From: Gammaproteobacteria bacterium
GTDB lineage: Bacteria; Pseudomonadota; Gammaproteobacteria; UBA4575
Reading direction: 5' to 3'
Assembly: GCA_965220895.1 (NCBI GenBank)
Contig: OZ244850.1
Coordinates: 1,218,962 to 1,282,961 of the forward strand
DNA length: 64,000 bases
Below, one piece after another: positions 45,788 to 63,884 of this stretch; position 1 is the stretch's first letter; each line of letters starts with the position of its first letter. The notes below the pieces were generated by a model. It was not told where the DNA came from, ran no database searches, and saw nothing but the letters and a program-made list of their open reading frames with translations. The translations under genes and the position numbers were made by a program.

Positions 45788-45817
45788 ACCGCGATTTGGA
45801 CTGCCGGTTCTACTTGC

Positions 45818-47182: not shown

Positions 47183-47194
47183 GGGCGGGTTCTG

Positions 47195-48473: not shown

Positions 48474-48718
48474 ATGTATGTGGCTGGGTCGTTTGCGAAC
48501 ATGAACCTGCAGTTTTCATTTTGCAACACCTTGGGAAATCCTGGAGAGCACCAGTGCCAATACTATCGCTCCCGGAATAGCAACGGCAATACCACGCCCT
48601 GTAGCCTCTTTTCACCGAGGTGAAACATGCAGGCTGTTTGCCGGGTCGGTCATCGTTTTCAAGGGCACAGGGCCTGCTTCCATATGCCTGCAGGATAGTA
48701 GAAAATATCCAGGCACTG

Positions 48719-49720
48719 ATGAAACGTGTTTACTTCCAGCCCGGTGGACGCGAGATCACCAGCAGGGATGGAGAGACGGTGCTTTCTGCTGCGCTTCGCC
48801 AGGGCCTTGTTTTTCCCCACAGCTGTCGCAGCGGAAACTGCGATACGTGTCATGCCCGTCTCGTCTCAGGGGAAATTGCCCCGGGTGCGACACCCCGGCT
48901 AGAGCCGGACCCCCCCACCTGCCGGCCCGGGACCATCCTGCTTTGTCAGGCCGTACCGCTTTCCGACGTGGTGATCGAAGCCCATGAGCTTGAAACCATG
49001 GCAGGCATGCAGGTCCGTACGCTGTCCGCCCGGGTGCTGGGCCTGGAACCGCTTGCCCGCAATGTAACCGCCCTCACGCTGGGTCTTGCGAAAGGACGTG
49101 GCACCCTGGAGTTTTGTGCAGGGCAGTACGTTGATCTCCTGCTGTGGGATCATGGTCGGCGCAGTTACTCGATTGCCAGTTCACCCGCAGACTCCGAAGT
49201 GATCGAGCTGCATGTGAGGAGAATTCCGGGTGGCCGGTTCAGCGAGCAGGAGTTGTCTGCCCTGAAGCCCCTGGATGTACTGCCCGTCATGGGACCCTTG
49301 GGAACTTTTTTCCTGCGTGATGACCCGCGTCCCACGATTTTTGTGGCCGCAGGCACAGGTTTTGCTCCGGTCGCCGCCATGATGGAGGATCTGCGAAGGC
49401 GTGGCACACGAAGGCAGATACGGTTCTACTGGGGAGTGCGTTCTCAAGCAGACCTGTACCGCCTCGATCAGATAGCCATCTGGGAACGGGACCTCGGCCT
49501 CGAGTTCTCGCCGGTATTGTCCGAGCCTGATCCGGGCTGGGACGGGCGATGCGGGCGAGTGCACGAAGCCGTACTCGCAGAGCATGCCGATTTGTCAGGG
49601 ATGCAGGTGTATGCCAGTGGATCTTCGGAAATGGTGGCCGCGGTTCGTGCGTATTTCCCCCGACATGGGCTGCAGGCCGATGTACTGCACTGCGAGCCTT
49701 TCGGGCATGCGGTGGATTAA
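48719..49720 (+). CDS. 2Fe-2S ferredoxin-FAD/NAD(P)H reductase (AscD-like)
   Basis: CRSGNCDTC...LLC, RSYSIAS, AAGTGFAP. Confidence 0.88.
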   Translation: MKRVYFQPGGREITSRDGETVLSAALRQGLVFPHSCRSGNCDTCHARLVSGEIAPGATPRLEPDPPTCRPGTILLCQAVPLSDVVIEAHELETMAGMQVRTLSARVLGLEPLARNVTALTLGLAKGRGTLEFCAGQYVDLLLWDHGRRSYSIASSPADSEVIELHVRRIPGGRFSEQELSALKPLDVLPVMGPLGTFFLRDDPRPTIFVAAGTGFAPVAAMMEDLRRRGTRRQIRFYWGVRSQADLYRLDQIAIWERDLGLEFSPVLSEPDPGWDGRCGRVHEAVLAEHADLSGMQVYASGSSEMVAAVRAYFPRHGLQADVLHCEPFGHAVD

Positions 49721-49768
49721 TCCGCTTGGGGCATCGATTTTTCCGGGAGGTGCATTATCATGGGAAGG

Positions 49769-49789
49769 TCAGGCGTCAGGCGTCAGGCG
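49769..49789 (+). repeat. Heptamer tandem repeat (TCAGGCG)3
   Basis: Three exact copies directly after an SD-preceded ATG at 49760. Confidence 0.85.
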
Positions 49790-49827
49790 TCTGGTCAAAA
49801 GTGCAAAAGGATACCGGGCCGTTCGAG

Positions 49828-50106
49828 ATGAAAAACAGTGTGGTGCAAAAGATCGTCGATGGATTCGTTGATGTAATCACGGCGGGCAACCGGCCGTTTC
49901 GTATCCTGTTGTTCGGGGGGATATTCCTGGCCTTGCTGATCATGAACATTCTGGCCCGGGTCCTTGGCATCAGGACCGACATCGGCGGAGATGTCGAATT
50001 GGCGAATGTCATCCTGATTGTGGTTTCCCTGTTCCTGGGTTTCGGAATCTCCTACAGCATCATCTATTTTTCAGACGCCAGCAAACGCAAACGTGCACGG
50101 AGGTAG
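49828..50106 (+). CDS. Small membrane protein with two TM helices
   Basis: Two hydrophobic helices and a basic C-terminus; start uncertain (see findings). Confidence 0.65.
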   Translation: MKNSVVQKIVDGFVDVITAGNRPFRILLFGGIFLALLIMNILARVLGIRTDIGGDVELANVILIVVSLFLGFGISYSIIYFSDASKRKRARR

Positions 50107-50149
50107 GCGCTCTCGGTGGGTCCGGGATGCCCGGCCCGCAGCCGGGGTA

Positions 50150-50473
50150 TCAAGGACTCGCTTGCCAGGTCAGGGCATACCTTGATTGGTCCACCTTGCC
50201 CCGGTTTTGGTGCAGGGTGATCTCGGCCCCATGGGATTTCAGGGCTTGGTTGATGGCGCTTCGAAAAACGAGCTGGCGAAACTGGCCGTATTCGAGCGTA
50301 GAAAAGGCCAGGTCTTGGCCCTGCAGGAAGGCATGCAGCCCCGGCAGCGTGAAGCACCAGCATTCTGGCTCCAGCTCGAAGCCCGGTTCTTCTTGCAGCT
50401 CTCCCAGCAACCCCGGGTCTTTTTGAGCGACCCGTTCAAAGAAACACAGCAGCTTCTGTTGCAAGTCCTGCAT
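50150..50473 (-). CDS. Hypothetical protein downstream of cynS
   Basis: 107-aa ORF on the same strand as cynS; no motif recognised. Confidence 0.55.
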   Translation of the reverse strand: MQDLQQKLLCFFERVAQKDPGLLGELQEEPGFELEPECWCFTLPGLHAFLQGQDLAFSTLEYGQFRQLVFRSAINQALKSHGAEITLHQNRGKVDQSRYALTWQASP

Positions 50474-50645
50474 GCGGACAGACTGCGCTCTACTGCCGAA
50501 GCGGTGCCGTCAGGTGCTCAAACGGTGCTGACACCGGTGGCCAGAGACGTCATCACCGTTTGTGGAGCCCCCTTTCCAGGGAACGATCAGCGCACGGCCT
50601 CCACCGGCAGGCCATTCTCCGGATGTCCTCCCGGGCGGTGCACTA

Positions 50646-51086
50646 CTACCATGTGGTGTACTTCAGAAATTTTCCATTCATGGTGATCACGACGCGATCC
50701 CCCTTCGGGTTCTCTTCCTTGTCGATGTCCATGGAGAAGTCGATCGCACTCATGATGCCATCGCCGAACTTCTCACCGATGATTTGCTTGATCGTGTAGG
50801 CGTAGACACCGACGATCTCGTAGAACCGGTACATGACAGGATCCTGGGGAATGATCTTCTCCCAGGTCTTGTTGGGGAATTCCTGCAGTGCAGCACAAAC
50901 CCCTTCATCCAACTCAAGAACCTCACACAGGCTTTTCGCGGCATCCTCCGGCATGCTGTTCATCCCGTAGCAGGCAGAAGCCACCCACACCTCGCCCATG
51001 TCCATCTTGCCGGCGACGGTTTCCCAAGTGAATCCCTTGGCCTTTTTCGCAGCCAGAATCAGGTCAGTCATTTCTTCTTTGGTCAT
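50646..51086 (-). CDS. cynS: Cyanase (cyanate hydratase)
   Basis: DPVMYRFYEI..VY, EKFGDGIMSAIDF, GDRVVITMNGKFL; SD GGAGG before MTKEEM. Confidence 0.95.
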   Translation of the reverse strand: MTKEEMTDLILAAKKAKGFTWETVAGKMDMGEVWVASACYGMNSMPEDAAKSLCEVLELDEGVCAALQEFPNKTWEKIIPQDPVMYRFYEIVGVYAYTIKQIIGEKFGDGIMSAIDFSMDIDKEENPKGDRVVITMNGKFLKYTTW

Positions 51087-51122
51087 TTCAATTCCTCCGT
51101 ATAAAACTGCATGATTAGATTC

Positions 51123-51139
51123 AGCAAAAAACGAGCCAA
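51123..51139 (-). promoter_or_regulatory. sigma54 -24/-12 promoter of cynS
   Basis: Minus strand TTGGCTCGTTTTTTGCT (GG-N10-GC). Confidence 0.8.
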
Positions 51140-51211
51140 CCCGGTGAACCACGAAATTTCATGGATTTGTCACGCCGAGTACGATGGGGCTGGCACACAT
51201 TGTCCGAAAAA

Positions 51212-51249
51212 TGCACTATATTAGTGCAATATTGCACCAAAACTGTACA
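51212..51249. promoter_or_regulatory. Tandem NtrC enhancer sites
   Basis: TGCACTATATTAGTGCA (51212-51228) and TGCACCAAAACTGTACA (51233-51249). Confidence 0.8.
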
Positions 51250-51301
51250 ATCCTCTACTGCGTGCGCGATTCGCACTGGTTGAAGCCCCCGATCTAGGGT
51301 A

Positions 51302-52237
51302 TCAGCCCAGGCTTTTTCCCTGAAGCATATCGGAGGACCAAGCCGAGGCCAGCTCCAGAAAGGCAAGGCATGCCGGGCTTTTGTACCCGCTTTTGTGCCA
51401 GATCATGCTGACGGTGTGATGTGGAAGCTCGGGCACCACGGCGATGGGATAAAGTCCGTCTTGCGTGTTGATGATCGTGCTGGGCAAGACCGTGGCAAGT
51501 GAGCCGAGCTCGACCAGCTCGATGATCACGGTCAGCGAATTGGTCTCGATCACGTTGCGGGGTTCGATGCCGCAATCATGGCAGTAGCGATCGATATGGT
51601 GTCGAAGGGCGAAGTCCGTATTGAGCTGGACCAAGGATTCCTTGCCAAAGTCCTGGGCACTGATCCGCTTTCTTTTCTGGGCATGCCTCGGATGCGCTTC
51701 GCCGACGGCGAGATAAAGGGCCTCCTCGAACAGGGTGAATGTCTCGGTATGGCCGGAATTTTCCTCGGAATGGTGCGGTTTGCTGAACGCGATCCCGATA
51801 TCGATCCGGGCTTCGGAGATGGCCGGTTCTATATCGTCCTGGGGCATGTCCAGCGTGCTCAGGGTGATGCCCGGGTACAACTGGTTGTAGCGGGACAGCA
51901 AGGAACAGGTCAGATAGTCGGTGATCGGGGTCCAGCCCAGTCGCAGGGAGCCGCGGCTGAGGTCCTGTACATCCTGAATTGCCCGCGTACCAATGTTCAG
52001 TTCTCCCCATGCGCGCCGCGCATGCCGGAGAAAAATTTTTCCGGCATCAGTCAGCTGTACAGTACGGCCTGAGCGGTCCAGCAAAGGAGATTGGAGGTAT
52101 TCTTCTAGTTGCTTGATTTGCTGGGATAAGGTTGGCTGGGAGACGTGCAGGGCTTCGGCCGCTCGCGTATAACTGCCATATTCTGATATCGCAATCAGGT
52201 ATTGAAGGGAGCGCGGAAAAATGTCTCGCCTATCCAT
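51302..52237 (-). CDS. cynR: CynR-like LysR-family regulator
   Basis: HTH SYTRAAEALHVSQPTLSQQIKQLE, DVQDLSRGSLRL, DIGIAF, DFALRHHIDRY; located between cynS and the scn operon. Confidence 0.85.
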   Translation of the reverse strand: MDRRDIFPRSLQYLIAISEYGSYTRAAEALHVSQPTLSQQIKQLEEYLQSPLLDRSGRTVQLTDAGKIFLRHARRAWGELNIGTRAIQDVQDLSRGSLRLGWTPITDYLTCSLLSRYNQLYPGITLSTLDMPQDDIEPAISEARIDIGIAFSKPHHSEENSGHTETFTLFEEALYLAVGEAHPRHAQKRKRISAQDFGKESLVQLNTDFALRHHIDRYCHDCGIEPRNVIETNSLTVIIELVELGSLATVLPSTIINTQDGLYPIAVVPELPHHTVSMIWHKSGYKSPACLAFLELASAWSSDMLQGKSLG

Positions 52238-52300
52238 AGTTAAACCCTATGAGTTTGATAAATATAAAGTCTTGGATTAATAACATAACTCCTTTAGACT
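52233..52300 (+). promoter_or_regulatory. LysR operator plus sigma70 promoter of the scn operon
   Basis: CATAG-N7-CTATG (52235-52251) overlapping the cynR start codon; TTGGAT-N17-TAGACT (52272-52300). Confidence 0.8.
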
Positions 52301-52430
52301 TGTCATTATCTCATATTACGACCCTATAAAATAAGTATATAAGAAAATACTGAAGTACCCCGAAACAACCAGCATGCAAGGTAGCGTGTTTGACATCCAG
52401 ATATGCAGAAAATAAGAGGAGTTCAAAGTC

Positions 52431-52862
52431 ATGCCATCTGATACCAGACAAAAAGTTTTGCGGCACATTGACATTGTTGGTCAATTGCAACCAGCTCTGC
52501 ATCAGCCGCAGCATGCCCCCCTTCCTACGGAGATCGATAACGCCCACTACAGGGCTTACATGAGGACTTCACACGATGTCGGTGGAGAGCCTGATGTGAC
52601 GATCCAGTGGCACGAAAAAGAAGAGGAACAGTGGGAATTGAACACCTACGTGACGTGCGAGTGTCTAGCATGGCGTGGCGTCTGGAATGCCGAGGAAAGA
52701 CGCCGCCGGCAGAATGTTGACCTGGGACAGACCCAGTACCTGGGCCTGCCTTATTACGGGCGTTGGCTGCTATCTGCTGCAAGGATCATGGTCGATAAAC
52801 AGCACATTACTCTCACGGAACTAATGGATAAGATTGATGAGGTTAAAAAGCGCTATGAGTAG
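52431..52862 (+). CDS. scnB: Thiocyanate hydrolase beta subunit
   Basis: QPALHQ..HAP.PTEI, HDVGGE, CECLAWRGVW.AEERRR.QN.D.GQT.YLG.PYYGRW. Confidence 0.93.
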   Translation: MPSDTRQKVLRHIDIVGQLQPALHQPQHAPLPTEIDNAHYRAYMRTSHDVGGEPDVTIQWHEKEEEQWELNTYVTCECLAWRGVWNAEERRRRQNVDLGQTQYLGLPYYGRWLLSAARIMVDKQHITLTELMDKIDEVKKRYE

Positions 52863-53208
52863 AGGTCATCATGCTGAGAAAGCCACTGGGAAAGGTGATC
52901 CACAATGTTTCCGGGGCGAGGCGACACCACCAAAATTCAAAGTCGGTGATCGAGTGCGGATCCGGGATTTGCCGGACATCTTCTACACCCGGTGCCAGGT
53001 GTATACACGGGGTGCAGAGGGAGTGGTGGCCGTTGTCACGCATGAAAGCCCCGCCCCTGAGGATGAGGCTTGGGACAATGTCGACAAGCCCGAGTGGTTC
53101 TACATTGTACGCTTCAAGCAAAAGGAACTCTGGCCCGAATATCCTGACGTTTATGAAAATGACACATTACAGACAGAATTTTCTGAGCGTTGGCTGGAGC
53201 TCGCATGA
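52855..53208 (+). CDS. scnA: Thiocyanate hydrolase alpha subunit
   Basis: HHA..ATG.GDPQCF, GDRVRIRDLPD.FYTR, ESPAPEDEA, LWPEY, NDTL.TE; ATG overlaps the scnB end. Confidence 0.93.
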   Translation: MSRGHHAEKATGKGDPQCFRGEATPPKFKVGDRVRIRDLPDIFYTRCQVYTRGAEGVVAVVTHESPAPEDEAWDNVDKPEWFYIVRFKQKELWPEYPDVYENDTLQTEFSERWLELA

Positions 53209-53256
53209 AACCGGCTGATTGGATCGACAAAGAGAATTGTATAGAGGGGAATAATC

Positions 53257-53949
53257 ATGGCAGATAAACATAAGCCTGCGCCTATGGTGGATGAAGTTAG
53301 CGACTTCGAGGTTCTGGAAGTCGCGGTTCGTGAGTTGGCCATTGAAAAGGGCCTTTTCAGTGCTGAGGACCATCGGCGTTTTGCAGAATTTGCGCACAGC
53401 ATAGGTCCACTGCCGGCCGCGCGGCTCGTGGCGAAGTCCTGGCTGGACCCTGAATTCAAGAAGCTGGCGCTGGAGGACGGGTTCACTGCGAGCAAGGAAG
53501 TGGGGATTGACTGGCTGAACCCAACGGGATTCGGGACTCCGAGTGACTACTGTGATTTGCGCGTGCTTGAGAACACTCCATCCGTGCATCATGTAGTGGT
53601 ATGCACGTTGTGTTCGTGTTACCCGAGGCCGATTTTGGGCCATTCCCCCGAGTGGTACAGGACTCCCAATTATCGTCGCAGACTGGTTCGCTGGCCACGT
53701 CAGGTGTTGTCAGAGTTTGGTCTGCAGATTCCAGCAGATGTCGAGGTGAGAGTTGAGGATTCCAACCAGAAGTGCCGTTTCATGGTCTTGCCAATGCGAC
53801 CTGAAGGTACCGAGGACTGGAGTGAAGACCAGCTCACTGAAATTGTGACGCGTGACTGCATGCTGGGAGTAGCCCTGCCACATCCGGAGCGCAAGGCCGA
53901 TGACAAACGGCCCGTGCACAAGGCAGCCAACCCGGTTCATGGGCACTAA
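53257..53949 (+). CDS. scnC: Thiocyanate hydrolase gamma subunit (Co-binding)
   Basis: KPAPMV.EV.DFE.LE.AVRELAIEKG, Co-type VCTLCSCYPRP, PEWYR.PNYRRRLVRWPR. Confidence 0.95.
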   Translation: MADKHKPAPMVDEVSDFEVLEVAVRELAIEKGLFSAEDHRRFAEFAHSIGPLPAARLVAKSWLDPEFKKLALEDGFTASKEVGIDWLNPTGFGTPSDYCDLRVLENTPSVHHVVVCTLCSCYPRPILGHSPEWYRTPNYRRRLVRWPRQVLSEFGLQIPADVEVRVEDSNQKCRFMVLPMRPEGTEDWSEDQLTEIVTRDCMLGVALPHPERKADDKRPVHKAANPVHGH

Positions 53950-53958
53950 AGTGACAGC

Positions 53959-54348
53959 GTGATGGACAGCCAGGAAAAAAATGATGGGACTGTCTCGGTG
54001 AGCCAGGAGCCGGAATTTTCTTCGGTTTCGCTGCTGGAGAAGGTCCGCAAGCAGGGAAGGGTCTGGGAGGATTTGGCCAAGAAGTACGGTGTGGATAATC
54101 CTGATCCCCCCTGGAAGATCAATCTGGACTCAACCTGCGAGGCACTTTCCGCTGAGCAGTGCGCACTTCCTGTATTGGAGCGCAGGACTGAGGAGGATGT
54201 GCTCTCCGAGAGCCTGTATCAAGATGTTCCTTATCCGGAGCGTCAGCTGCTGGCTCTTGCCCATTCGATGATTGAGCGTGGATTGATTGATGAAGATGAA
54301 CTGGCACTTCGCATGAAGTTTGTCAGCAAGCGTCTCAACGGTGCCTGA
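53959..54348 (+). CDS. Probable SCNase activator/metallochaperone (P15K-like)
   Basis: About 15 kDa, directly after scnC; C-terminus (PYPERQLLALAHSMIERGLIDEDEL) resembles the NHase-beta helical region. Confidence 0.72.
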   Translation: MMDSQEKNDGTVSVSQEPEFSSVSLLEKVRKQGRVWEDLAKKYGVDNPDPPWKINLDSTCEALSAEQCALPVLERRTEEDVLSESLYQDVPYPERQLLALAHSMIERGLIDEDELALRMKFVSKRLNGA

Positions 54349-54422
54349 TGATATGCATGCGGTCAGGCAGAGTACAGGGTGAGTGCATGACAGATAGACG
54401 GTGATACTAAGGACGATAGCCG

Positions 54423-54785
54423 ATGGCAAATATATTCATGAAGTCTTCATGGGGGAGCGATGACCCGACACGGGCGGCAATGGTTTTCGGGCATGCGAAT
54501 GCCCTGGCAAGTGCAGGCCATGAGGTACGGATATTCCTACTCGGTGAGGCCGTTTGCCTGGCACGCCCTGTGGTTCGTGAGAACATGGTTCCACTGGGTT
54601 GGCCGTCTGTCGCCGAACAGTGGGATGAAGCCATTGGGAATGGTGTACGCATTGAATGCTGTGGCGCATGTTCCAGAGCTAGGGGCGTGAGTGAAGACGA
54701 CATGGCGAAAGCTGGAGCCCAGCCTGGTAATCCCACCACCTTCGTGGAAAGTGTTGAATGGTCCGACAAGATTATCGCGGAATGA
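54423..54785 (+). CDS. DsrE/DsrF-family protein
   Basis: V.IFLLGEAV, CCGACSRARG, WSDKII. Confidence 0.85.
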   Translation: MANIFMKSSWGSDDPTRAAMVFGHANALASAGHEVRIFLLGEAVCLARPVVRENMVPLGWPSVAEQWDEAIGNGVRIECCGACSRARGVSEDDMAKAGAQPGNPTTFVESVEWSDKIIAE

Positions 54786-54913
54786 AAGATGACAGTGGCC
54801 AGAACAGATCAGATCCGACCCTTGCCTAATCTTTTGTTCCGTGTATGCGTGTAAGACAGATGAAGCGGCAAGCTACAGAAGATGAAGACCGACCGTAGAG
54901 GCAGAGAACATAT

Positions 54914-55744
54914 ATGGAAAGACGCACCGGCGTACGCATCGATATTGGCGACCTTACCCATCGCTATTCCGCGAAAGCCCCGATTACCTTTGAGCAAGTT
55001 AATATCACGGCGGAACCCGGCGAAGCATTGGTTGTCATTGGTCGGTCCGGTTGCGGGAAATCAACGCTTCTGCATATCTTGGCCGGCCTGCTGGAAAAAA
55101 CCAGCGGCGTTGTACAACTGGACGGAAAAGATGTTACGGAGCCCTCCTCACATTGGATAATGATGTTTCAAGCACCGCATCTTTTTCCCTGGATGACGGT
55201 AGAACAGAACGTTGGCACAGGCCTGCGCTTTGCGCGTTGGTCGGAGGAGAAAATGAAAAAACGGGTGGCCGAGGTGATTAATCTCGTACACCTTGATGAA
55301 TTTGCGCAGAACAACACGCAAGACCTCTCCGGTGGTCAGCAACAGCGTGTTGCGCTTGCTCGCTCTCTGGTGATGGAACCTGATCTATTGCTACTGGATG
55401 AGCCATTTTCGGCACTGGATGCCTTCACGCGAGCAACACTGCAAAAAGATGTAAGAGCGATCTCGAAACAGTTGGGATTTAACCTGGTGATGGTCACCCA
55501 CGATATCGATGAGGCAGTCATTATGGCCGATCGTGCATTGGTCATGGCGGGTTCGCCCGGCAAGATTGTCCATGACTTTAAGGTGGATCTGGATGATCCG
55601 CGAGAAAGGCAGGATCCCGAGGTTCAGGCAATGCGTGCTAAACTGATGGAGATATTTCATCAGGCGGCAGGTGTGCCTGTTGACAGTTCCAATGAGGAAG
55701 GAGACGACGCCGGTCAACCGGATGTTGAACTGGCAGGCAACTAG
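54914..55744 (+). CDS. ABC transporter ATP-binding subunit (NrtD/SsuB type)
   Basis: GRSGCGKS, LSGGQQQR, LLDEPFSALD, VTHD. Confidence 0.93.
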   Translation: MERRTGVRIDIGDLTHRYSAKAPITFEQVNITAEPGEALVVIGRSGCGKSTLLHILAGLLEKTSGVVQLDGKDVTEPSSHWIMMFQAPHLFPWMTVEQNVGTGLRFARWSEEKMKKRVAEVINLVHLDEFAQNNTQDLSGGQQQRVALARSLVMEPDLLLLDEPFSALDAFTRATLQKDVRAISKQLGFNLVMVTHDIDEAVIMADRALVMAGSPGKIVHDFKVDLDDPRERQDPEVQAMRAKLMEIFHQAAGVPVDSSNEEGDDAGQPDVELAGN

Positions 55745-55808
55745 AATAATATCTGAAAGTGCACTTCAGACCTATTAACTACGAGAGTAACGATTGAGGA
55801 ATTCCGAC

Positions 55809-57101
55809 ATGAAGAAAATTTACGACAAACATGGCGACGGGATACAGACCGATGATCCCAGGCTCGCCATAGAGTACGACCCGCTGTTCAAGGGGGTGCT
55901 AGGTACCGGTATCAACCGGCGTGAATTGCTGCAGGTGGGAGGCCTGGCTGCTCTGGGAGGTGGAGCCGGTGCCTTGCCGATGCCTACCTTCGCTAAGAAA
56001 AAGTGGGACCCGGTTATCAAGATTGGGTACATCCCCATCACGGATGCAGCCGCACTCCTTATCGCCCATGATCTGGGCTATTTCAAGGATGAAGGCATTG
56101 ATTCTGTGAAGCCGACACTGATTCGTGGCTGGTCGCCACTGGTGGAAGCCTTTGCAGCGCATCGCTTCAACCTGACGCATATGTTGATACCGATTCCGGT
56201 ATGGATGCGCTACAACAACAAGTACCCGATCAAGATCACAGCTTGGGACCACACTAACGGGTCTGCTGTGCTGGTGGGTAAGAAAAGCGGTATCAATGAG
56301 CCGAAGGACTTTGGTGGCAAGCAGTTTGCTGTACCGTACTGGTACTCGATCCACAACATTGTTTCGCAAAGGATCATGAAAGCGGCCGGCATCAAGCCGG
56401 TCATCAGACCCCAATCTGCGAAGCTGGCGGATGACGAGTGCAACTTCCTCGTCTTGGCGCCGCCCTCCATGCCGCCTGCGCTGGCAGCGGGAACCATTGA
56501 CGGCTACTGTGTGGCTGAACCTTTCAACGCTTTGGGTGAGCTCAAGGCGGGTGGAAAGGTACTGCGCTTCACCGGGGATGCCTGGAAAGGACACCCCTGC
56601 TGCGTCGTTGTGATGCATGAAGAAGACGCCATGGACCCGGATCGTGCTGCTTGGGCCCAGGGGGTACACAACGCAGTGGTCAGGGCGCAGATCACACTCG
56701 CTGAGAACCGGGAGTCAATGTCTGAGCGGCTTTCACGTGACGGCAAGGGTTACCTGCCGGTACCGAAAGAAGTCGTAAAACGGGCAATGATGTTCTACGA
56801 CCCCGCTTATTACAAGAATCCGCCTGCCATCAAGCATCCGGAATGGGGACAGAACAGGATTGACTTCCAGGCATGGCCGTATCGCTCGGCCACGGAACTC
56901 GTGGTCAGTGACCTCAAGGAAACTGTGGTCACAGGTGATGCGCGATTCCTGGAGACGCTCACTCCACAGCATGTTTCCGACGATCTGGTCAATTATGACT
57001 ATGTGAAGAATGCGCTGGAAGCGAATCCGAAATGGAGAAATGATGCGAGCGTGCCGCAAGAAGGCGATCCGTACATTCGATCCGAGGTGTTCGTACTTTG
57101 A
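55809..57101 (+). CDS. NrtA/CmpA-like anion-binding protein, Tat-exported
   Basis: NRRELLQ twin-arginine signal, IGYIPITDAAALL, FAVPYWYSIHN, VAEPFN, HPCC. Confidence 0.88.
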   Translation: MKKIYDKHGDGIQTDDPRLAIEYDPLFKGVLGTGINRRELLQVGGLAALGGGAGALPMPTFAKKKWDPVIKIGYIPITDAAALLIAHDLGYFKDEGIDSVKPTLIRGWSPLVEAFAAHRFNLTHMLIPIPVWMRYNNKYPIKITAWDHTNGSAVLVGKKSGINEPKDFGGKQFAVPYWYSIHNIVSQRIMKAAGIKPVIRPQSAKLADDECNFLVLAPPSMPPALAAGTIDGYCVAEPFNALGELKAGGKVLRFTGDAWKGHPCCVVVMHEEDAMDPDRAAWAQGVHNAVVRAQITLAENRESMSERLSRDGKGYLPVPKEVVKRAMMFYDPAYYKNPPAIKHPEWGQNRIDFQAWPYRSATELVVSDLKETVVTGDARFLETLTPQHVSDDLVNYDYVKNALEANPKWRNDASVPQEGDPYIRSEVFVL

Positions 57102-57952
57102 GTAACGGCAAAGCGGATGTGGTGGATGTCGATGCGGGCGCTTCCGCATCGTCGCTGAAGGCTGCGCAAAACGCGAAAAAAGCCAAGTCGCTGGGCAAGA
57201 GCCTGTTCAACTGGGCTGCTGGCCTGGCGATCCTTTTCGTGCTTTGGTGGTTTGGCGGGTATCTCATTGAGATCAATCCCGATACCACGAACTTCAGTGA
57301 CTTTGGGCCGATCCCGACGTTTAAGGCATTTCCGGAACTGTTTGCAATTGGTAAGATCCAGGCAGCGGTCATAACCAGTGGCTATCGTCTGGGGGCAGGA
57401 CTGCTCATTGCCATTGTCGTTGGGATACCCATTGGAATCCTGCTTGGACGTAGCACGGTCTTTCGTGAGCTCAGCAATTCGCCATTTCAGTTGATCCGTA
57501 TGATCAGCCCGCTTTCCTGGGAGCCCATTGCCGTGATCGTGTTTGCCACCTGGAACGGGGCAATCGTATTCCTGATCGCGGTCGCCGCGGTCTGGCCCGT
57601 CGTCTTTGCTACGGCAGCCGGTCTGGCGAAGGTGGACCCTGCCTGGTTCAAGGTGGCCCGTAACCTGGGTGCCAAGCCCTGGCACATGGTGACGGAAATC
57701 ATCCTGCCAGCCATCATGTTCGATATCCTGACGGGCGTACGGCTCGCTCTGGGTGTTGGATGGATTGTGCTGGTACCGGCAGAGTTTCTCGGGGTGACCT
57801 CGGGACTTGGCTACTCCATTGCGGATGCCAGGGAGACACTCTCGTATGACCATTTGACGGCGATGGTGCTGACCATCGGGATCATGGGCTACATACTTGA
57901 CAGTTCCTGTGCGATGTTGATCAAGCGCTACAGCTGGCACCACGGAAGATAA
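57098..57952 (+). CDS. ABC transporter permease (NrtB/SsuC type)
   Basis: RMISPLSW, EAA-like ARNLGA, WIVLVPAE.LG..SGLGY. Confidence 0.9.
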   Translation: MSNGKADVVDVDAGASASSLKAAQNAKKAKSLGKSLFNWAAGLAILFVLWWFGGYLIEINPDTTNFSDFGPIPTFKAFPELFAIGKIQAAVITSGYRLGAGLLIAIVVGIPIGILLGRSTVFRELSNSPFQLIRMISPLSWEPIAVIVFATWNGAIVFLIAVAAVWPVVFATAAGLAKVDPAWFKVARNLGAKPWHMVTEIILPAIMFDILTGVRLALGVGWIVLVPAEFLGVTSGLGYSIADARETLSYDHLTAMVLTIGIMGYILDSSCAMLIKRYSWHHGR

Positions 57953-58014
57953 GCAAATACCAAACGAACACTAATTAATTTGCTGATTTAACTAAATCGA
58001 GGAAAAAGATAACC

Positions 58015-58212
58015 ATGCAAAATCAGATAGCAAGCAGTGTAAAACTGCATGATGGAACGATTTCCAAGGCAACACGGCGTCCGTTGTTACAGATTGCCGC
58101 TGCCTTTTTGTTGGGCGCCGTAATCTTGTACGGTGTAGGCTTTGCACATTCGGCCGCGGTGCACAATGCGGCCCATGATGTTCGCCATACCCAAGCCTTC
58201 CCTTGCCACTAG
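58015..58212 (+). CDS. cbtB: Second CbtB-family cobalt-binding membrane peptide
   Basis: TM helix plus VGFA....HNAAHDVRHTQAFPCH. Confidence 0.88.
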   Translation: MQNQIASSVKLHDGTISKATRRPLLQIAAAFLLGAVILYGVGFAHSAAVHNAAHDVRHTQAFPCH

Positions 58213-59045
58213 GCATTAGGGGAAATATCACAGGAAACTGCTGAGAATTCCTCTCGATGGCTTGGCCCACGGTCAGGATGACCTCGGGCCAAGCCTGTGT
58301 TTTTTAGCTGGCTTGTAAATACAGGTCGGCATCCTTGCGCTATAAATCCTGATCGGACGAAGGTCCGTCTTACTGTCAGAAAATCCACCTGTGCTGAGGC
58401 AGGGTGGGGGGTAGCTTGGTATGACGAAAACAGTACGGGCATCCTGACAGCCATCGGCACAAGCTGGTATGGCAGCTCTCCATGAGTGTGCCCACCAAGG
58501 TCGTGAACCGCTTGCTGAGTGCCCTGCCCTTAAGCAACGCACCTTTTGCATTCTGTAAACCTCAGCATGCCTGCAGTGGATGCACAGGTAATGCCCCCCG
58601 GCCATCGTGCATTAATCAGGTATTTGCAGGGAAGCAGCTTGGTCAGGGAATTGCTCAAGAAACTCAAGGGCCTTGGGTCCCTAATCGTGGGGACAGTGGG
58701 GACAGCGTCCATGGGTCACTGAACAAACCAGGGTACGGTGGTTGCAATGAATTTCGGGAACGTAACATCTGCCGCCAGTTGGGATCAGCATCCAAAGAAG
58801 TATTAAGGGCATAACCGCAATGGTGAACGCCAGCCCTGAAGCCAACCACGCGAGATCAACGGATTAGGTATAACGCGTAGTGCGTGAAGGTCTGATGAGG
58901 GTTCCTGGCATTTGTGAATAGTATGCGCATATTGTCGACAATTCACCTGTACATGGCCTGTTTGGTGGCACTGCGCTGTTATTTAGGGATGAGTTTCACT
59001 CAATGATTTACGCAAGGAATAGCAACTGGCGATAGACCTTCACAC

Positions 59046-59075
59046 AAAAAAAGAGGGGTGCAATTTGCACCCCTC
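59046..59075 (-). terminator. Rho-independent terminator of the porin gene
   Basis: Minus strand GAGGGGTGC-AAATT-GCACCCCTC followed by TTTTTTT. Confidence 0.85.
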
Positions 59076-59122
59076 GGTTTGGTGTAAGTTTGCCTTCCAG
59101 TGAAGGCTACGTACTACGGTAG

Positions 59123-60721
59123 TTATTTGAAGCGATATTGGAGCAGTGTCCAAAACTTCTTGGTGTCCGTAGAGAACCCGTCCTCACTTTCGAAGTCCGT
59201 GTACTTGATTGCGAACAGGAATTTACCCTTAAAGGGTTTACCCCACAGTATGCCCCATTCATCTCCATAATCAGAAATGCGGTTGCCTCCTGACATGTAG
59301 GATCGGTCCGTGCTGTAGTCGTGATAATTGATGACGAGCTTGTTCTTGCCAATTTTGTTGCCCATAAGACCCAAAATTGTCAGGGTCACGCTGGTGTCCT
59401 CGATGCCACCAAGAGGGGTTGCCGAGCCACCAGGAGCGGCTACAAACTTATCAGCCCAGCCATTGAAGGCATGCACTGTAGCCAAAGGGGTTTGTATTGC
59501 ATTGTTGCCGTTACTCTCCAAGACCTCGTAACCGACTCTTATCTGGTAGGTAGGCTCGCCAATGGGCATGAAGCCTAGGTTATCTACCCGTGTGCCGCCA
59601 AACCTGATCCCGAACTCAATATTGTAATAATCATTGTCGTCCAGTTTCTGCATGGTCTGCACATTGACACCTGCATCGTCAGTTGGGTCCTGGTTCGCAT
59701 ACTCTAGCTCACTCTGGATATCCAACGTGTCACTGAATTCGTGCCTGCCGGTAAAGCGTACACCGTAGGTCTCCGAATCAAAAATTACGGGACCAATGAA
59801 AGATGGTGCCATGCCTGTACCTTCAGGGAACGGGGTACGGGGATTATCATCAAAATCCAGCAGATAGCCGTAGGCGACCAGTTTGCCATTGAATTGCGGG
59901 AGCTTGTAGGAAATATTGATGAGGTGGGAGTCGTCCATTTTCCATTCATCAAAAATTGAATCTGGACCAAATAGTCGCTTTACCTTGTCAAGATAGGTAT
60001 AAGAGATCCCAAGTTTTCCGAGCGTCTTATCTACCCTGAATGCGTCCATAGCAACGTTGTTTCCACGCCAGATCACATCACCAACCCACCGGTGGTTGTC
60101 ATAAATGACAGTTTGCCGTCCCAATTTAAACGACAAGGGACCATCGCAAGGACCCGGTGCACTAGGACAGCCGCCCGTTGGTGCACGCCATCCGATATAG
60201 GCTTCATTGATTTCTTCAAAATCATTGTCCGGGATAATGCCATAACCCTCAATATAACGGTTCATCGCTGGTAGGTTACCCCGTATAGGCGCTGGTATTC
60301 CTCCTATTCCGCCTACAGCACCGACGTTGGGAGGCACAGTAAAATCACCATCAAGATTTAGTGCCCTGTCCGAGTTCAGGACGTCGTTCACCTCCCCTTC
60401 GATCCGGGCATAAAAACCATGGAGGCGGCCTGTGGTATAGCCCAGCGCATTGCGCAAGACAATCATGTCGGCCTTGTCGGTGTCAGAAAGAGGGTGTCCA
60501 CTCGCAAAATCATCCTCCACGCTCTCATAACGTATGCGTGACCAGAAATCGAAACGGCCATTGGTTAATGCTTCACCAAGGTTTGTGTGGTCCGGCGTCA
60601 TTTTGTGATGGGGGTTATGATGGGTGTTGGGGACATCCGGCAAGCCCACCGCTCCGACACCCTGCGCAAGCACTAGAATGGCTGCGGCCATGAGACATGG
60701 CAGAGGTTTAAAGTTGACCAT
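59123..60721 (-). CDS. Alginate-export (AlgE-like) family outer-membrane porin
   Basis: Signal peptide, RIRYESV, KLGRQ.V.YDNHRWVG.V.WR, QTPLATVHAFNGWADKF, DTKKFW..LQYRF; SD GGAGGAG. Confidence 0.85.
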   Translation of the reverse strand: MVNFKPLPCLMAAAILVLAQGVGAVGLPDVPNTHHNPHHKMTPDHTNLGEALTNGRFDFWSRIRYESVEDDFASGHPLSDTDKADMIVLRNALGYTTGRLHGFYARIEGEVNDVLNSDRALNLDGDFTVPPNVGAVGGIGGIPAPIRGNLPAMNRYIEGYGIIPDNDFEEINEAYIGWRAPTGGCPSAPGPCDGPLSFKLGRQTVIYDNHRWVGDVIWRGNNVAMDAFRVDKTLGKLGISYTYLDKVKRLFGPDSIFDEWKMDDSHLINISYKLPQFNGKLVAYGYLLDFDDNPRTPFPEGTGMAPSFIGPVIFDSETYGVRFTGRHEFSDTLDIQSELEYANQDPTDDAGVNVQTMQKLDDNDYYNIEFGIRFGGTRVDNLGFMPIGEPTYQIRVGYEVLESNGNNAIQTPLATVHAFNGWADKFVAAPGGSATPLGGIEDTSVTLTILGLMGNKIGKNKLVINYHDYSTDRSYMSGGNRISDYGDEWGILWGKPFKGKFLFAIKYTDFESEDGFSTDTKKFWTLLQYRFK

Positions 60722-60869
60722 GGTTTTACTCCTCCCTTGCAAGGGTTTTGGCCAGATTGTCCTTGAGTAACCCGGCCATAACAGTTTCAGGACCCTGAAT
60801 TATAAGTTTTAAGCCTACTCCCTTCACATAAGCTTAATAATCTATCTATAGTAAATAATTGCTTTCCCG

Positions 60870-60913
60870 TCCAAGACTTTATCTTTATTGAAACCATAGA
60901 TTTTGACTATGGA
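60870..60913 (-). promoter_or_regulatory. Second copy of the LysR operator/-35 element
   Basis: Minus strand TCCATAGTCAAAATCTATGGTTTCAATAAAGATAAAGTCTTGGA; 36/44 identical by hand to 52233-52276. Confidence 0.85.
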
Positions 60914-61055
60914 CCAATTAATAGTTATTACATTATAAGGGTGCAGGCAATAAATACAATTGCCGGCGTGCCTTCGCTGGCTATAAAGATCAAAACCTTA
61001 GGCCTGCAATCCGGGTATTCCGGCAATGGGTTGAGGGCATTTTTAAGGAGCTTTT

Positions 61056-62345
61056 TCAGTAGCCGGCAGGGTCTGGCGCCTTGAGCCACCTTGGATCGGC
61101 TGCAAGCGGTCCCGAGAGGGTGTGCAGGAATGCTTCAAGCTGCTTAGCCTCTTTGCGTCTCAAGGACAGTGCTTTGGCCTCGTTGTGTCCCACCATGGCT
61201 GCGGGAGCACGGTCATAATGATCGATTACTTCCTGGAGCGTTGCCAGCTGTCCTGCATGCATGTAGGGGCCGGTCTTTGCGGTATTCCTGAGCGACGGCG
61301 TCTTGTGGGCACCCACCAGGTTGTCGCCGGTTTGGATAAAGCGCAGCTCAGTACACTCCCTAGGGTTGATGTCACTGAAATCGCCCCGGCAGTTGAACGG
61401 GTCGTCCAGTACGGCCTGCACTGCAATGATCCGGCCTCTGCTTGGAAGCGAGCCCGGGCTGGACAGTAACGCTGTGTTGTGGAACTCGTGATTGGTGAGT
61501 AGCGGACCATTATGGCAGTTGATGCACTGTGCCTTGCCGATGAACAGCCTCAGGCCGGCACGTTCATCCTTGCTCAGGATTTCGGCGGGTTCACGGCTTC
61601 CTGCCACCAGCGCTTCCACGTAGTGATCAAATCGCGCTGCCCCCGGCATTAACAAGCGCTCATAGGCAGCGATGGCCTTGCCGATATTCGCGAACACCCT
61701 TGTTACCGCTTTTTGATTATCCGGGGACATGGACTGCCAGTTCTCATCCAGATTCTTGTCGCTTACGGGACCTGCAGCCGCTGGAAAACGCGAAGGATCG
61801 GAAAAATCATCCAGGGGTCCAAACAAGGCCTCGTACTGTATACGGTAGTGCTCGTCTTGTGCGACAAGACGCACGAGCTGCATGCGCGAACTCCCGTGCT
61901 CCAGCGGGTTTTCAAGCGGAGACAGGGCCTGGGACCAAAGGCTGTCCTTGCGCCCGTCCCAGAACAGCCAGGGGCTGTAGGCCGTACCGACGATGCTCAT
62001 GGTATTTCGCTTGCCGGTGTCGAGCCCTTCGGCAACTTCCAGGCCGTCCGTAAAAAAGTGTTCGGGCCGGTGACAGCTTGCGCAGGAGATTTGTCCATTG
62101 GCGCTCAGGCGTTTGTCGAAAAATAGACGATGGCCGAATTCTGCAGCCTGTAGATTGTCGGCTACGGCATTGCTCGTGCCCGTTGGCAGGGGCGGAAGGT
62201 TGGCGATCCAGAGCGAGCGAATCAGGTTGATCTCCGAGTCCGTCCAGGCATCGCTGTTCCTGTCAGGCCAGGCATACCACCACCCGGCACCGGCCAGGAT
62301 GACCAGGATGGTTGCTGTGAGCGTGCCCCGGAGCGCTTCCGACAT
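61056..62345 (-). CDS. Di-heme cytochrome c peroxidase/MauG-family protein
   Basis: LFFDKRLS, CASCH, FWDGR, CINCH, KTPSLRN, PYMHAG; N-terminal anchor. Confidence 0.88.
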   Translation of the reverse strand: MSEALRGTLTATILVILAGAGWWYAWPDRNSDAWTDSEINLIRSLWIANLPPLPTGTSNAVADNLQAAEFGHRLFFDKRLSANGQISCASCHRPEHFFTDGLEVAEGLDTGKRNTMSIVGTAYSPWLFWDGRKDSLWSQALSPLENPLEHGSSRMQLVRLVAQDEHYRIQYEALFGPLDDFSDPSRFPAAAGPVSDKNLDENWQSMSPDNQKAVTRVFANIGKAIAAYERLLMPGAARFDHYVEALVAGSREPAEILSKDERAGLRLFIGKAQCINCHNGPLLTNHEFHNTALLSSPGSLPSRGRIIAVQAVLDDPFNCRGDFSDINPRECTELRFIQTGDNLVGAHKTPSLRNTAKTGPYMHAGQLATLQEVIDHYDRAPAAMVGHNEAKALSLRRKEAKQLEAFLHTLSGPLAADPRWLKAPDPAGY

Positions 62346-62352
62346 GCCGCGC

Positions 62353-62787
62353 CTACAGGTCCAGGTCAAAGGTCACGCGGTCTGAAGTTTCCCCTTGCTG
62401 GATCAGGAGCATGACCTGCCACCGACCGCCCATGTGGAACTTCATGCCCTCGAGCAGGTAGTCCCCTCTGCCCAGGTTTTCCGTGACCCTTGGCCGTGTG
62501 GGTAACCCATGGTCATGGTCCGGCATCCCTCCCTCGATCTGGACCGTGGCATCGGTGACGGGCTTGCCCGAGCGGTCCTGGATGTGCAGCGTCCATGCAT
62601 GCATGGTGTTAATCGCGATGGGATCGAGATGGCTGGTGAAGCGAACCTCGAAGTGTTGCTCATCCGAGAGCCTGGAGGCCTCGGTGTCGGGCTGCTCTGA
62701 ACTGCCTTGTGTCCATGCAAACGCTGCATACACGCAAACTGCGAGAAATGTTGCTTTCATGATCCTCATGGCTTCAGTCCTCACCAT
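62353..62787 (-). CDS. YtkA/FixH-like periplasmic protein
   Basis: GGMPDHDHG and G.Y....KFHMGG.W motifs. Confidence 0.78.
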   Translation of the reverse strand: MVRTEAMRIMKATFLAVCVYAAFAWTQGSSEQPDTEASRLSDEQHFEVRFTSHLDPIAINTMHAWTLHIQDRSGKPVTDATVQIEGGMPDHDHGLPTRPRVTENLGRGDYLLEGMKFHMGGRWQVMLLIQQGETSDRVTFDLDL

Positions 62788-63403
62788 GTGATTGATTACG
62801 TTTTAAAATCCTGCGTATGCGTGCATAGCCGCCGCTCATCAGCCAGTAATTCAGTTGCAGGAACACGGCCAGTGCGACGAACCAGGGAATCAATCCCCAG
62901 TCGGCCCCACCCACCCGAAATGGGAACATGGCCGTGTACGTCTTGCTGCCTTCAGGACTTTTGGCAGTAACGATGCCGATGTAGTTGCCCTCCTCGGTGA
63001 ACCGGTACATGGCGAGAAATACACCGTCGCGTTCGATCAGGGGGGGCTGGTGAAACACGGTATTGCGCTGCACACCCTCTTTGATGTCGTTCCATCTCGC
63101 AAACCGGCCGCGGTTGTCCACGTCCTCGATGATGCGAAATTCGACCGGGACTTCTCTCAGGCTGTCGTGCAGGTACTCGAGAACGAATATGCTCTCATCG
63201 ACATGGGGGATATCCTCGCACCATTCCTCGTGCTGGCTTTTCTGCGGCTGGTAGATTTTGAAATGGGCCCTGTAAAAGCCGATCTGGATGACGCAAAGAT
63301 CGTCTTCCATGAACACCCCTCCATGTGCATGAATGTTCTGGCAAGGCCACAGGGCCAGACAGGCCAGAAGAAGTACCGAGCGTGCCGAGGAAATGTGCGT
63401 CAA
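62774..63403 (-). CDS. PmoD/AmoD-like periplasmic copper protein with C-terminal TM helix
   Basis: Signal-HGG..MEDD.C...G...AHF..YQP....EE.CEDIP...LREVPVEFRII pattern recalled from the PmoD family. Confidence 0.68.
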   Translation of the reverse strand: MTHISSARSVLLLACLALWPCQNIHAHGGVFMEDDLCVIQIGFYRAHFKIYQPQKSQHEEWCEDIPHVDESIFVLEYLHDSLREVPVEFRIIEDVDNRGRFARWNDIKEGVQRNTVFHQPPLIERDGVFLAMYRFTEEGNYIGIVTAKSPEGSKTYTAMFPFRVGGADWGLIPWFVALAVFLQLNYWLMSGGYARIRRILKRNQSHGED

Positions 63404-63505
63404 GATTCAGGCAGGGTATCCACTCGATCGGCCACGGGTGGCTGCCATGGCAGGCACACCGGGGTCTCGGTGGGTCCTGGTCGGGATCCTGTCTGCCTTG
63501 GAAAA

Positions 63506-63871: not shown

Positions 63872-63884
63872 GAGTTGTTACCCT

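Follow-up and report, generated by a model that had tools for sequence, protein, structure and literature searches.

How thiocyanate (SCN-), a common natural and industrial pseudohalide, enters cells has been shown for no organism in the papers that could be searched, and the question is raised by a locus of a gammaproteobacterial genome (assembly GCA_965220895.1, contig OZ244850.1) in which predicted genes of a cobalt-type thiocyanate hydrolase stand beside those of an ATP-binding cassette (ABC) importer. The stretch of this contig that we analysed, called here the window, is 64,000 nucleotides (nt) long and all coordinates refer to it. Our reading, to which we give a probability of about 0.75, is that we are dealing with a real island for the use of thiocyanate by the carbonyl sulfide (COS) pathway, whose importer was recruited from a cyanate-uptake set. 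The locus and about 90 relatives pointed to one candidate importer, belonging to a clade found almost only beside the hydrolase.

The hydrolase genes and the gene of the putative activator are the following:

52431-52862, forward strand: scnB, thiocyanate hydrolase beta subunit (PDB 2dd4_B, E 3.7e-64, residues 1-141; PF21006, 65.5 bits)
52855-53208, forward strand: scnA, thiocyanate hydrolase alpha subunit (2dd4_A, E 1.3e-46)
53257-53949, forward strand: scnC, thiocyanate hydrolase gamma subunit, catalytic, with the cobalt site (TIGR03887, 393.4 bits; 2dd4_C, E 3.2e-116)
53959-54348, forward strand: P15K-type activator, nitrile hydratase beta-like, 129 residues (weak match to PF21006, NHase_beta_N, 22.0 bits, E 1.8e-4)

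An earlier note on this DNA had proposed a cobalt enzyme of the Thiobacillus thioparus type, accompanied by an activator, an ABC importer and genes for cobalt supply, and this proposal was borne out, ScnC scoring far above the curated cut-off of TIGR03887 (291.45 bits) and each subunit matching its own chain of the T. thioparus structure 2dd4. The stretch Cys-Thr-Leu-Cys-Ser-Cys of the metal site of ScnC aligned with that of the T. thioparus gamma chain (2dd4_C), and its residues C116, T117, L118, C119, S120 and C121 were invariant across 12 sequences. The beta chain of nitrile hydratase was found to be split, with ScnB corresponding to its N-terminal part and ScnA to its C-terminal part, and the identity to the T. 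thioparus chains, judged by eye, was about 80% for gamma, 70% for beta and 65% for alpha. The frame 52871-53218, which had been taken for scnA, turned out to be a shadow frame without any family or PDB match; the ATG of scnA at 52855 overlaps the stop codon of scnB, in the frame of the open reading frame (ORF) 52834-53208.

A P15K-type activator assists cobalt insertion, as established for T. thioparus. The corresponding gene begins here 9 nt past scnC, and a homologue followed scnC in 28 of the 30 listed genome loci whose scnC identity was at least 65%, actinobacterial loci included. Loci with scnC of at most 57% identity had neither P15K nor transporter in the listed genome scan, with the exception of the short locus L029, which had P15K, the binding protein and cbtB. 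By family membership, the operon is predicted to encode a thiocyanate hydrolase like that of T. thioparus. The alignments of the subunits gave no sign of export, ScnB being aligned from residue 1 and ScnC from residue 4, and if the enzyme is cytoplasmic, thiocyanate must be imported.

The genes that could account for such an import lie downstream of the activator gene:

54914-55744, forward strand: ABC ATPase, NitT/TauT type (PF00005, 125.9 bits)
55809-57101, forward strand: periplasmic binding protein of the NrtA/CmpA/CynA fold family, with a twin-arginine signal (PF13379, 126.9 bits)
57098-57952, forward strand: ABC permease (PF00528, 75.2 bits)

The presence in one operon of an NMT1_2-type binding protein, a BPD_transp_1 permease and an ABC_tran ATPase corresponds to a NitT/TauT-type ABC importer. 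None of the components reached a curated nitrate, taurine or sulfonate equivalog: the ATPase scored 202.2 versus a cut-off of 291.8 bits for ntrCD, the permease 117.7 versus 209.05 for ntrB and 140.4 versus 295 for SaoP, and the binding protein 74.5 versus 163.5 for SsuA_fam and 26.9 versus 304.25 for the taurine binding protein. The profile of the binding protein matched NrtA (2g29, E 1.3e-14) and CmpA (E 4.7e-6); both structures (PDB 2g29 and 2i48) belong to its fold family (PF13379) and are distant from it.

In order to see with which genes this importer occurs, the ScnC alignment was used as query against species-representative genomes and the binding-protein alignment against metagenome contigs, each search giving at least 80 loci, which are a sample. 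Gene frequencies were counted over 91 listed loci in 64 groups (dereplicated at 95%, some loci that could not be dereplicated being counted singly), and the counts of loci and groups in this text refer to the loci listed; the recurring upstream genes were found by all-against-all clustering of ORFs from related loci. A class sample of about 400 genomes around the nearest genome was also searched (401 genomes for scnC and for the outer-membrane channel described below, 400 for the binding protein). Linkage was evaluated from the binding protein in loci having at least 4.5 kb upstream of its gene, and from scnC in loci having at least 4.5 kb downstream of it.

When metagenome loci were chosen by the binding protein, scnC was present in 40 of 41 (32 of the 33 dereplicated groups). 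Starting from scnC, nine of the 22 genome loci with enough room carried the binding-protein gene, and all nine were Proteobacteria by record title. In the class sample, scnC scored above the cut-off in 10 of 401 genomes, and binding proteins of 62-99% identity were found in 9 of 400, all of them with scnC on the same contig at a distance of 2-3 kb; in the tenth scnC genome (G160), scnC lies at the end of a contig. Ten further genomes had relatives of 46-56% identity, all without scnC, leaving a gap between the scn-linked clade (at least 62% inside) and everything outside it (at most 56%).

The same separation appeared in a maximum-likelihood tree, in which 60 scn-type rows, the binding protein of the window among them, stood on one side of a branch with a support of 99 in the Shimodaira-Hasegawa-like approximate likelihood ratio test (SH-aLRT). 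The set of sister loci comprised seven rows, five with cynS nearby (SH-aLRT 94), and the type found on the plasmid pANL of Synechococcus elongatus fell outside. The binding protein of the window was not in this cyanase-linked clade. Stretches fetched around the 46-56% relatives had cynS in five of eight cases; a sigma-54 activator with GAF, AAA and HTH_8 domains, resembling CynF, was present in the two loci whose ORF of about 537 residues matched (L167 and L170), a two-domain rhodanese in L170 and L171, and genes resembling those of acyl-CoA dehydrogenases (ACAD) and OsmC in L167. These sister loci may represent a family of pseudohalide-related clusters. The nearest transporter relatives outside scn loci were L167-L172 (genomes G268, G264, G321, G337, G355 and G358).

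Linkage and tree together support the view that the importer of scn clusters would be a thiocyanate-adapted offshoot of cyanate-type importers. The suggestion of the earlier note that it carries thiocyanate or cyanate was much strengthened by the linkage in 40 of 41 loci and in nine genomes and by the position as sister to a cyanase-linked clade, on which the assignment to thiocyanate still depends. What appears to be new here is a clade of binding proteins almost exclusive to scn loci and sister to a cyanase-linked one, as well as, described below, the repeated occurrence of the channel gene near scnC in independent genomes and the cover of operon and channel gene by contigs of three RNA libraries. 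The binding-protein clade would be a better genomic marker of real thiocyanate users than cyanase.

Two features of the binding protein were conserved in its clade. A stretch of about 30 residues precedes the twin-arginine motif (55809-55920, the first 37 residues or so) in scn-linked members, with invariant positions that include Gly-Asp-Gly, Asp-Pro and Leu-Gly, and in the pANL-type relative the twin arginine is preceded by only about 10 residues; a chaperone might dock at this n-region of the twin-arginine translocation (Tat) signal. Further on, Trp-Lys-Gly-His-Pro-Cys-Cys (56580-56610, residues 258-270 approximately) was invariant in all eight aligned scn-linked proteins, and both adjacent cysteines were kept in the 44%-identical pANL protein. 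In a sub-lineage (L123, L127, L139-L145, L149 and L157-L160) the binding-protein gene and cbtB-cbtA come directly after the P15K gene, with neither ATPase nor permease gene between them. The transporter genes of this sub-lineage may be rearranged rather than lost, since in L158 an ATPase homologue was found beyond cynR, at 11234.

Around the hydrolase and importer genes, the following genes were identified:

50646-51152, reverse strand: cynS, cyanase (TIGR00673, 169.5 versus 113.3 bits; NF002773, 202.6 versus 150)
51302-52237, reverse strand: cynR-type LysR regulator, divergent from scnB (NF008416, 339.3 versus 277 bits)
54423-54785, forward strand: dsrE-family gene (PF02635, 58.0 versus 22.7 bits)
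58015-58212, forward strand: cbtB copy 2, at the end of the operon (PF09489, 76.3 bits; TIGR02459, 74.3 versus 64.4)
47195-47443, reverse strand: cbtB copy 1, paired with cbtA (PF09489, 63.9 versus 27 bits; TIGR02459, 63.0, just below 64.4)
46487-47182, reverse strand: cbtA, predicted membrane subunit of a cobalt transporter (PF09490, 178.2 bits; TIGR02458, 248.1 versus 182.9)
43956-44858, forward strand: methyltransferase dependent on S-adenosylmethionine (Pfam Methyltransf_31/11/25; no NCBIfam equivalog reached)

All the genes and orientations that the earlier note had given, that is the co-directional scnB-scnA-scnC, activator, dsrE, ABC genes and cbtB with cynR/cynS and a convergent porin gene at their sides, were confirmed. 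The genes from scnB through cbtB, being co-directional and separated by short gaps, probably form one operon, which is preceded by an AT-rich spacer of 193 nt between the cynR-type gene and scnB; cbtB-cbtA and the methyltransferase gene lie 4-8 kb upstream of it. The arrangement is not due to chance, because dozens of independent loci share its core order, the proteobacterial loci L001-L008, L010 and L011 as well as metagenome loci among them. The usual order was cynR (reverse), scnB, scnA, scnC, P15K, ATPase, binding protein, permease, cbtB, cbtA, dsrE2, tusA, sqr and a gene of no assigned family. The numbers of groups, out of 64, in which each gene was found near scn were as follows:

permease 56, ATPase 53, P15K 52
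DsrE2 45, TusA 44, SQR-like flavoprotein 41, unknown protein of 149 residues (hyp149) 40
CynR type 35, cbtB 26, cbtA 22, cynS 20
CCG/4Fe-4S protein 16, methyltransferase 13, CbiM 7
channel 4, dsrE type of the window 3

The co-occurrence of binding protein, DsrE, CbtB and porin with scnC that the earlier note had expected held for the binding protein (40 of 41 loci) but not for the DsrE type (3 of 64) or the channel (4 of 64); cbtB was found in 26 of 64. In these 26 groups cbtB came after the permease or the binding-protein gene, usually with cbtA just behind. The window departs from the usual order in four ways: cbtB follows the permease gene and cbtA is upstream, with a second cbtB; dsrE2, tusA and sqr are missing from all 64 kb; a different dsrE follows the P15K gene; and a channel gene comes after the operon. 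Homologues of the cynR-type gene (42-94% identity) were found near scn, mostly divergent from scnB.

The gene layout itself is not new. The earlier note had named a previous description of the whole cluster with these parts as a ground for rejecting its reading, and such a description largely exists: Berben et al. (2017, PMC5328954) reported the core scn layout of T. thioparus DSM 505 and Thioalkalivibrio thiocyanodenitrificans ARhD 1, and the text of their Figure 3, in the part of the article available to us, names scnABC, a hypothetical gene, a NitT/TauT ABC transporter, a DsrE/F-like gene, tusA, sqr and another hypothetical gene; in T. thioparus, scn is preceded by genes for cyanase, a methylase and a subunit of a cobalt transporter. 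Like these clusters, the window has scnBAC followed by a P15K-type gene and a NitT/TauT ABC transporter, and DsrE-like, cyanase, methylase and cobalt-uptake genes nearby. Unlike them, it has no tusA, sqr or trailing hypothetical gene, its dsrE is of another type and placed before the ATPase gene, its cobalt genes are cbtB/cbtA instead of a subunit of ABC type, and it has in addition a regulator of CynR type and an AlgE-like channel, which are both absent from the passages of that article available to us. Cyanase had been assigned by the earlier note to the other route of thiocyanate degradation, via cyanate; as it stands directly before scn in T. thioparus (PMC5328954, same part), it is no marker of that route. 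In the accessible text of two other reports, a Thiobacillus is said to have 'the necessary transporters and cyanase' next to its hydrolase (Huddy et al., bioRxiv 10.1101/2020.04.29.067207), and cyanase and thiocyanate hydrolase are both transcribed in Thiodiazotropha (PMC11171427).

The nearest studied importers are the ABC cyanate importers CynABD, which have been analysed genetically and kinetically according to the sections consulted of PMC6627978. Like CynABD of S. elongatus and of cynFABDS of Pseudomonas pseudoalcaligenes CECT5344, the candidate importer has a NitT-type binding protein, would carry a small linear pseudohalide anion and is tied to cyanase. The sister clade resembles cynFABDS in the company of cynS and of a CynF-like sigma-54 activator of the Fis type, whereas the binding protein of the window stands in the separate, scn-linked clade; the gene order in the window is ATPase, binding protein, permease, and the regulator is of the LysR CynR type instead of CynF. 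The earlier note knew of no characterised importer of this kind; this holds for thiocyanate, for which no described transporter was found in the papers that could be searched, but not for cyanate, as the CynABD systems in the same source show.

A more distant operon on pANL (NC_004073.2; L165, 38849-43308) encodes a binding protein 44% identical over 380 residues (E 8e-118) and has the order of the window (ATPase, binding protein, permease), as does a similar operon on an Agrobacterium plasmid (L166). Both are without scn and have a gene of the DUF4242 or CMD family and a gene of the acyl-CoA-dehydrogenase family before the ABC genes. The pANL operon lies in a sulfur region, with cysK and a gene for a chromate transporter as neighbours; the pANL region or CysR is said to have been linked by Nicholson and Laudenbach in 1995 to thiocyanate as a sulfur source.

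Passage across the outer membrane could be provided by the product of the gene convergent with the operon:

59123-60742, reverse strand: AlgE/OprD-like outer-membrane channel, 539 residues, start probably at 60721 (structural model and homologues)

The protein itself had no Pfam match (PF13372 included, E at most 0.01) and no NCBIfam match, and nothing was found in the PDB by sequence at E of at most 1. Homologues numbered 792 at E of at most 1e-5, with PF13372 on 64 of the 120 listed (counted by hand), and an Atlas search placed the protein among alginate-export-family clusters (0.98). A single-sequence AlphaFold model had a predicted local distance difference test score (pLDDT) of 29.6 and was unusable, and a model based on an alignment of 41 sequences reached a pLDDT of 75.9 with a predicted template modelling (TM) score of 0.78. 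Foldseek matched the latter to AlgE (8pz4, E 3.1e-15) and to OprD/Occ at similar E values (about 1e-15), with target-normalised TM scores of 0.59-0.77 (0.65-0.77 for the OprD/Occ chains) and a sequence identity of 9-14%. The barrels of AlgE and OprD/Occ have 18 strands. The predicted fold is thus like that of AlgE and of Pseudomonas OprD/Occ, and no alginate genes were found near the channel gene of the window. The model suggests that the channel is an AlgE/OprD-like monomeric outer-membrane barrel, for which 'porin', the name used by the earlier note, is fair and 'AlgE/OprD-like channel' more exact.

Orthologues of the channel (E at most 1e-40) were present in 4 of the 401 genomes of the class sample, and three of these four have scnC (G002, G157 and G324). 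The first of these is closely related to the window; in the other two the channel gene is convergent, as it is here, and stands 5-6 kb downstream of scnC. Channel genes near scn were also found in L087, L091 and L106, at 49-54% identity. The link between channel and scn is real but confined to some lineages, and the importer is a testable candidate for thiocyanate import with an outer-membrane partner in some lineages.

If these elements act together, thiocyanate would cross the outer membrane through the channel. In the periplasm it would be bound by the Tat-exported binding protein of the NrtA/CynA family and then pumped in by the ABC transporter, as the linkage and the sister clade suggest. 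In the cytoplasm the cobalt enzyme ScnABC, a member of a family for which the reaction is established, would convert it to COS and ammonia (NH3). Cobalt would enter through CbtAB, a predicted family function for which transport is only proposed, and its insertion would be helped by the P15K-type activator. Cyanase could handle cyanate admitted by the same importer or used as a second nitrogen source, and DsrE probably takes charge of the sulfur, as sulfane or sulfide, before it reaches Sox. Importer and regulator would together represent a cyanate-uptake set recruited to thiocyanate. A bolder proposal, possible in our opinion but tentative, is that the binding protein, its ABC partners and the channel are the first dedicated two-membrane thiocyanate route, derived from a cyanate importer and CynR, with COS disposed of without a canonical hydrolase. 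The wider subfamily would in that case consist of unrecognised pseudohalide transporters standing beside cyanase, rhodanese, sigma-54 CynF-like, ACAD-family, OsmC and CMD genes, including those of pANL, and some members may serve a flavoenzyme route that strips sulfur from thiocyanate.

The closest scn genomes (G001, G002 and G324) have 1.6-1.7 Mb, and since SoxB and RuBisCO are encoded in the two closest of them, G001 and G002, the host is probably a small-genome sulfur-oxidising autotroph, to which thiocyanate could for the same reason be an energy source besides a source of nitrogen and sulfur. The general family scans of the window genes (37836-63805), which included no search directed at PF00484, gave no COS-hydrolase or carbonic-anhydrase family. 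Beta-class matches were obtained in three other scn genomes, the one in G157 being weak (E 7.5e-5), and a search for CsoSCA had no match anywhere, controls included, and is hence uninformative. Since these searches gave no COS hydrolase, the module is neither self-contained nor the complete system that the earlier note had described; cbtA, moreover, lies outside the segment delimited there, and so do cbtB copy 1 and the methyltransferase gene.

Several observations weigh against the reading of the region as a thiocyanate-utilisation island with a thiocyanate importer. The importer was absent from 13 of the 22 listed genome loci with room, 11 of them actinobacterial by name (Mycobacterium, Nocardia, Rhodococcus and others) and two from metagenome-assembled genomes named 'Proteobacteria bacterium', so that the hydrolase works without it there. 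In L120 (3758-6722), the only one of the 41 binding-protein loci without scnC, the P15K-type gene and the transporter are kept and two LysR genes and an alpha/beta hydrolase gene replace scnBAC. The set DsrE2-TusA-SQR-hyp149, present in 40-45 of the 64 groups, was missing from the whole 64-kb window, and the dsrE type of the window occurred in just three groups. The channel was seen in only four groups within the fetched flanks, was not found with this query in the scn genomes G003-G007, and occurred without scnC in G083. The beta-class carbonic anhydrase family that includes COS hydrolase (PF00484) had no match in G001, G002 and G324, and the alpha class (PF00194) none in G001 and G002, genomes that may be incomplete. 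T. thioparus itself was absent from the scn loci, which are a sample; the tree of binding proteins was a quick one, with SH-aLRT support and no bootstrap; and in the searchable literature, where no described thiocyanate transporter was found, papers list the transporter without a function.

In another explanation the ABC system imports cyanate (or nitrate, nitrite or bicarbonate) and simply travels with scn, feeding cyanase or supplying it with bicarbonate, and thiocyanate enters otherwise. It would account for the position of the nearest clade beside cynS in five of eight loci, for the membership of cynR and cynS in the cluster and for the nitrate and bicarbonate binders in the fold family (NrtA, E 1.3e-14; CmpA, E 4.7e-6), and such systems are promiscuous, CynABD of S. 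elongatus carrying nitrite too and the nitrate/nitrite transporters of P. pseudoalcaligenes possibly carrying cyanate (PMC6627978, sections consulted). We nevertheless regard it as unlikely, because 40 of 41 binding-protein loci have scnC but only 20 of 64 groups have cynS, scn-linked binding proteins form a well-supported clade of their own apart from the cyanase-linked one (at least 62% identity inside, at most 56% outside), no curated cut-off for nitrate, taurine or sulfonate was reached, and the hydrolase subunits carry no sign of export in the alignments. A nitrile hydratase whose substrate is an organic nitrile or isonitrile seems very improbable: the enzyme does belong to the cobalt-type nitrile hydratase family, and ScnC matches nitrile hydratase alpha chains (E 1e-60 to 1e-43) as well as TIGR01323, but the latter at 208.3 bits, under the cut-off of 249.85, and it clears that of TIGR03887 by a wide margin; moreover, the beta chain is divided between ScnB and ScnA, just as in thiocyanate hydrolase, and it is the loci with scnC of at most 57% identity that have neither P15K nor transporter, the short L029 excepted.

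The channel and the second cbtB could also be mere neighbours, the former a general anion or substrate channel and the latter the leftover of a lost cbtBA pair. The rarity of the channel (4 of 64 groups, not found in G003-G007, without scnC in G083) agrees with this, as does the lone cbtB, which elsewhere is followed by cbtA and here is not, with a full cbtB-cbtA pair upstream. We find this rather doubtful, since three of the four channel genomes among the 401 are scnC genomes, only one of them the close relative G002, with the gene at most 6 kb away and convergent; since the channel genes near scn in L087, L091 and L106 are only 49-54% identical; since contigs from RNA libraries covered the channel gene together with the operon; and since cbtB copy 2 is intact, above the TIGR02459 cut-off and inside RNA contig 54312-58303.

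The RNA contigs came from a comparison with public sequencing runs, 20 of which contained part of 52300-58300, five of these 20 being recorded as RNA. Three RNA runs from two studies (X7, X9 and X11) and one DNA run were compared with 43900-62400; runs X1-X4 were excluded, as they hold all sampled words and may be the source. The main contigs of X9 spanned 52345-54123, 54312-58303 and 59245-60907, those of X11 formed eight pieces across 52325-58251 and 59075-60907, and the pieces listed for X7, from the other study, lay between 52324 and 58231, with a further one at 60524-60745. The contigs of all three libraries thus covered scnB-cbtB and touched the channel gene, and they come from relatives, because their identity was 90-99%. 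Operon and channel gene are therefore both present in RNA libraries; the contigs show no strand, level or single transcript. Little or no RNA-contig cover was seen over 43900-52000 and 61176-62400, and the DNA run of the sample of X9 covered 30 of 30 bins, a difference not usable as evidence. The runs are labelled 'sponge metagenome' and 'marine metagenome', suggesting that thiocyanate may be a live source of nitrogen, sulfur or energy for small-genome sulfur oxidisers in such settings. At the left, the RNA contigs start at 52324 and 52325 in X7 and X11; at the right, X9 and X11 have contigs that stop at 60907 and carry adapter letters there, a weak hint that 52324-52345 and 60907 might be the 5'-ends of the operon and channel transcripts.

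With respect to the accessory genes, the family match of cynS spans residues 23-168, and its start is probably at 51086 because the match begins at residue 23. The DsrE protein of the window scored 19.9 versus 89.25 bits on TIGR03012 (the TusD equivalog), below the cut-off, and BLASTP gave no alignment with the common DsrE2 at E of at most 10. No cbtA partner follows cbtB copy 2: the 0.9 kb between cbtB and the channel gene (58212-59123) contained no remnant of cbtA, dsrE2 or tusA and no convincing ORF, and its middle was unconserved even with the closest relatives, including L002 (98%), so it was treated as variable intergenic DNA. A scan of 48000-64000 against Rfam gave nothing at E of at most 0.1. 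A scan for consensus promoters found five sites versus a mean of 8.7 in shuffled sequences, fewer than expected by chance, and was discarded. Two terminator-like hairpins were obtained in a hairpin scan, one of them (59075-59053) by the channel gene.

The edges of the region contain the following genes:

42611-43801, reverse strand: IS481-family transposase (NF033577, 236.1 versus 224 bits)
45014-45787, forward strand: metallophosphoesterase
47589-48473, reverse strand: metallophosphoesterase (one of the two is CpdA-like)
48620-49720, forward strand: Fer2-FAD-NAD reductase (FNR)
61056-62369, reverse strand: MauG-like di-haem peroxidase, beyond the channel gene

The IS481 transposase gene stands at the left edge of the module, adjoining the housekeeping genes mutY, moaC and a degP-type gene. 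Its presence there and the lower G+C content (0.48-0.55 over 52000-61000 versus 0.57-0.59 in much of both flanks) suggest that the module is an acquired island of about 17 kb. The other four genes listed were syntenic in the closest relatives, and weak matches to CpdA, FNR and MauG occurred in four, two and two of the 64 groups, one to three of them beyond the closest relatives. ORFs 49549-50106 and 50186-50686, both on the forward strand and without a family match, had short homologues near scn or cynR in four and six groups, respectively, and may encode small conserved proteins with later starts.

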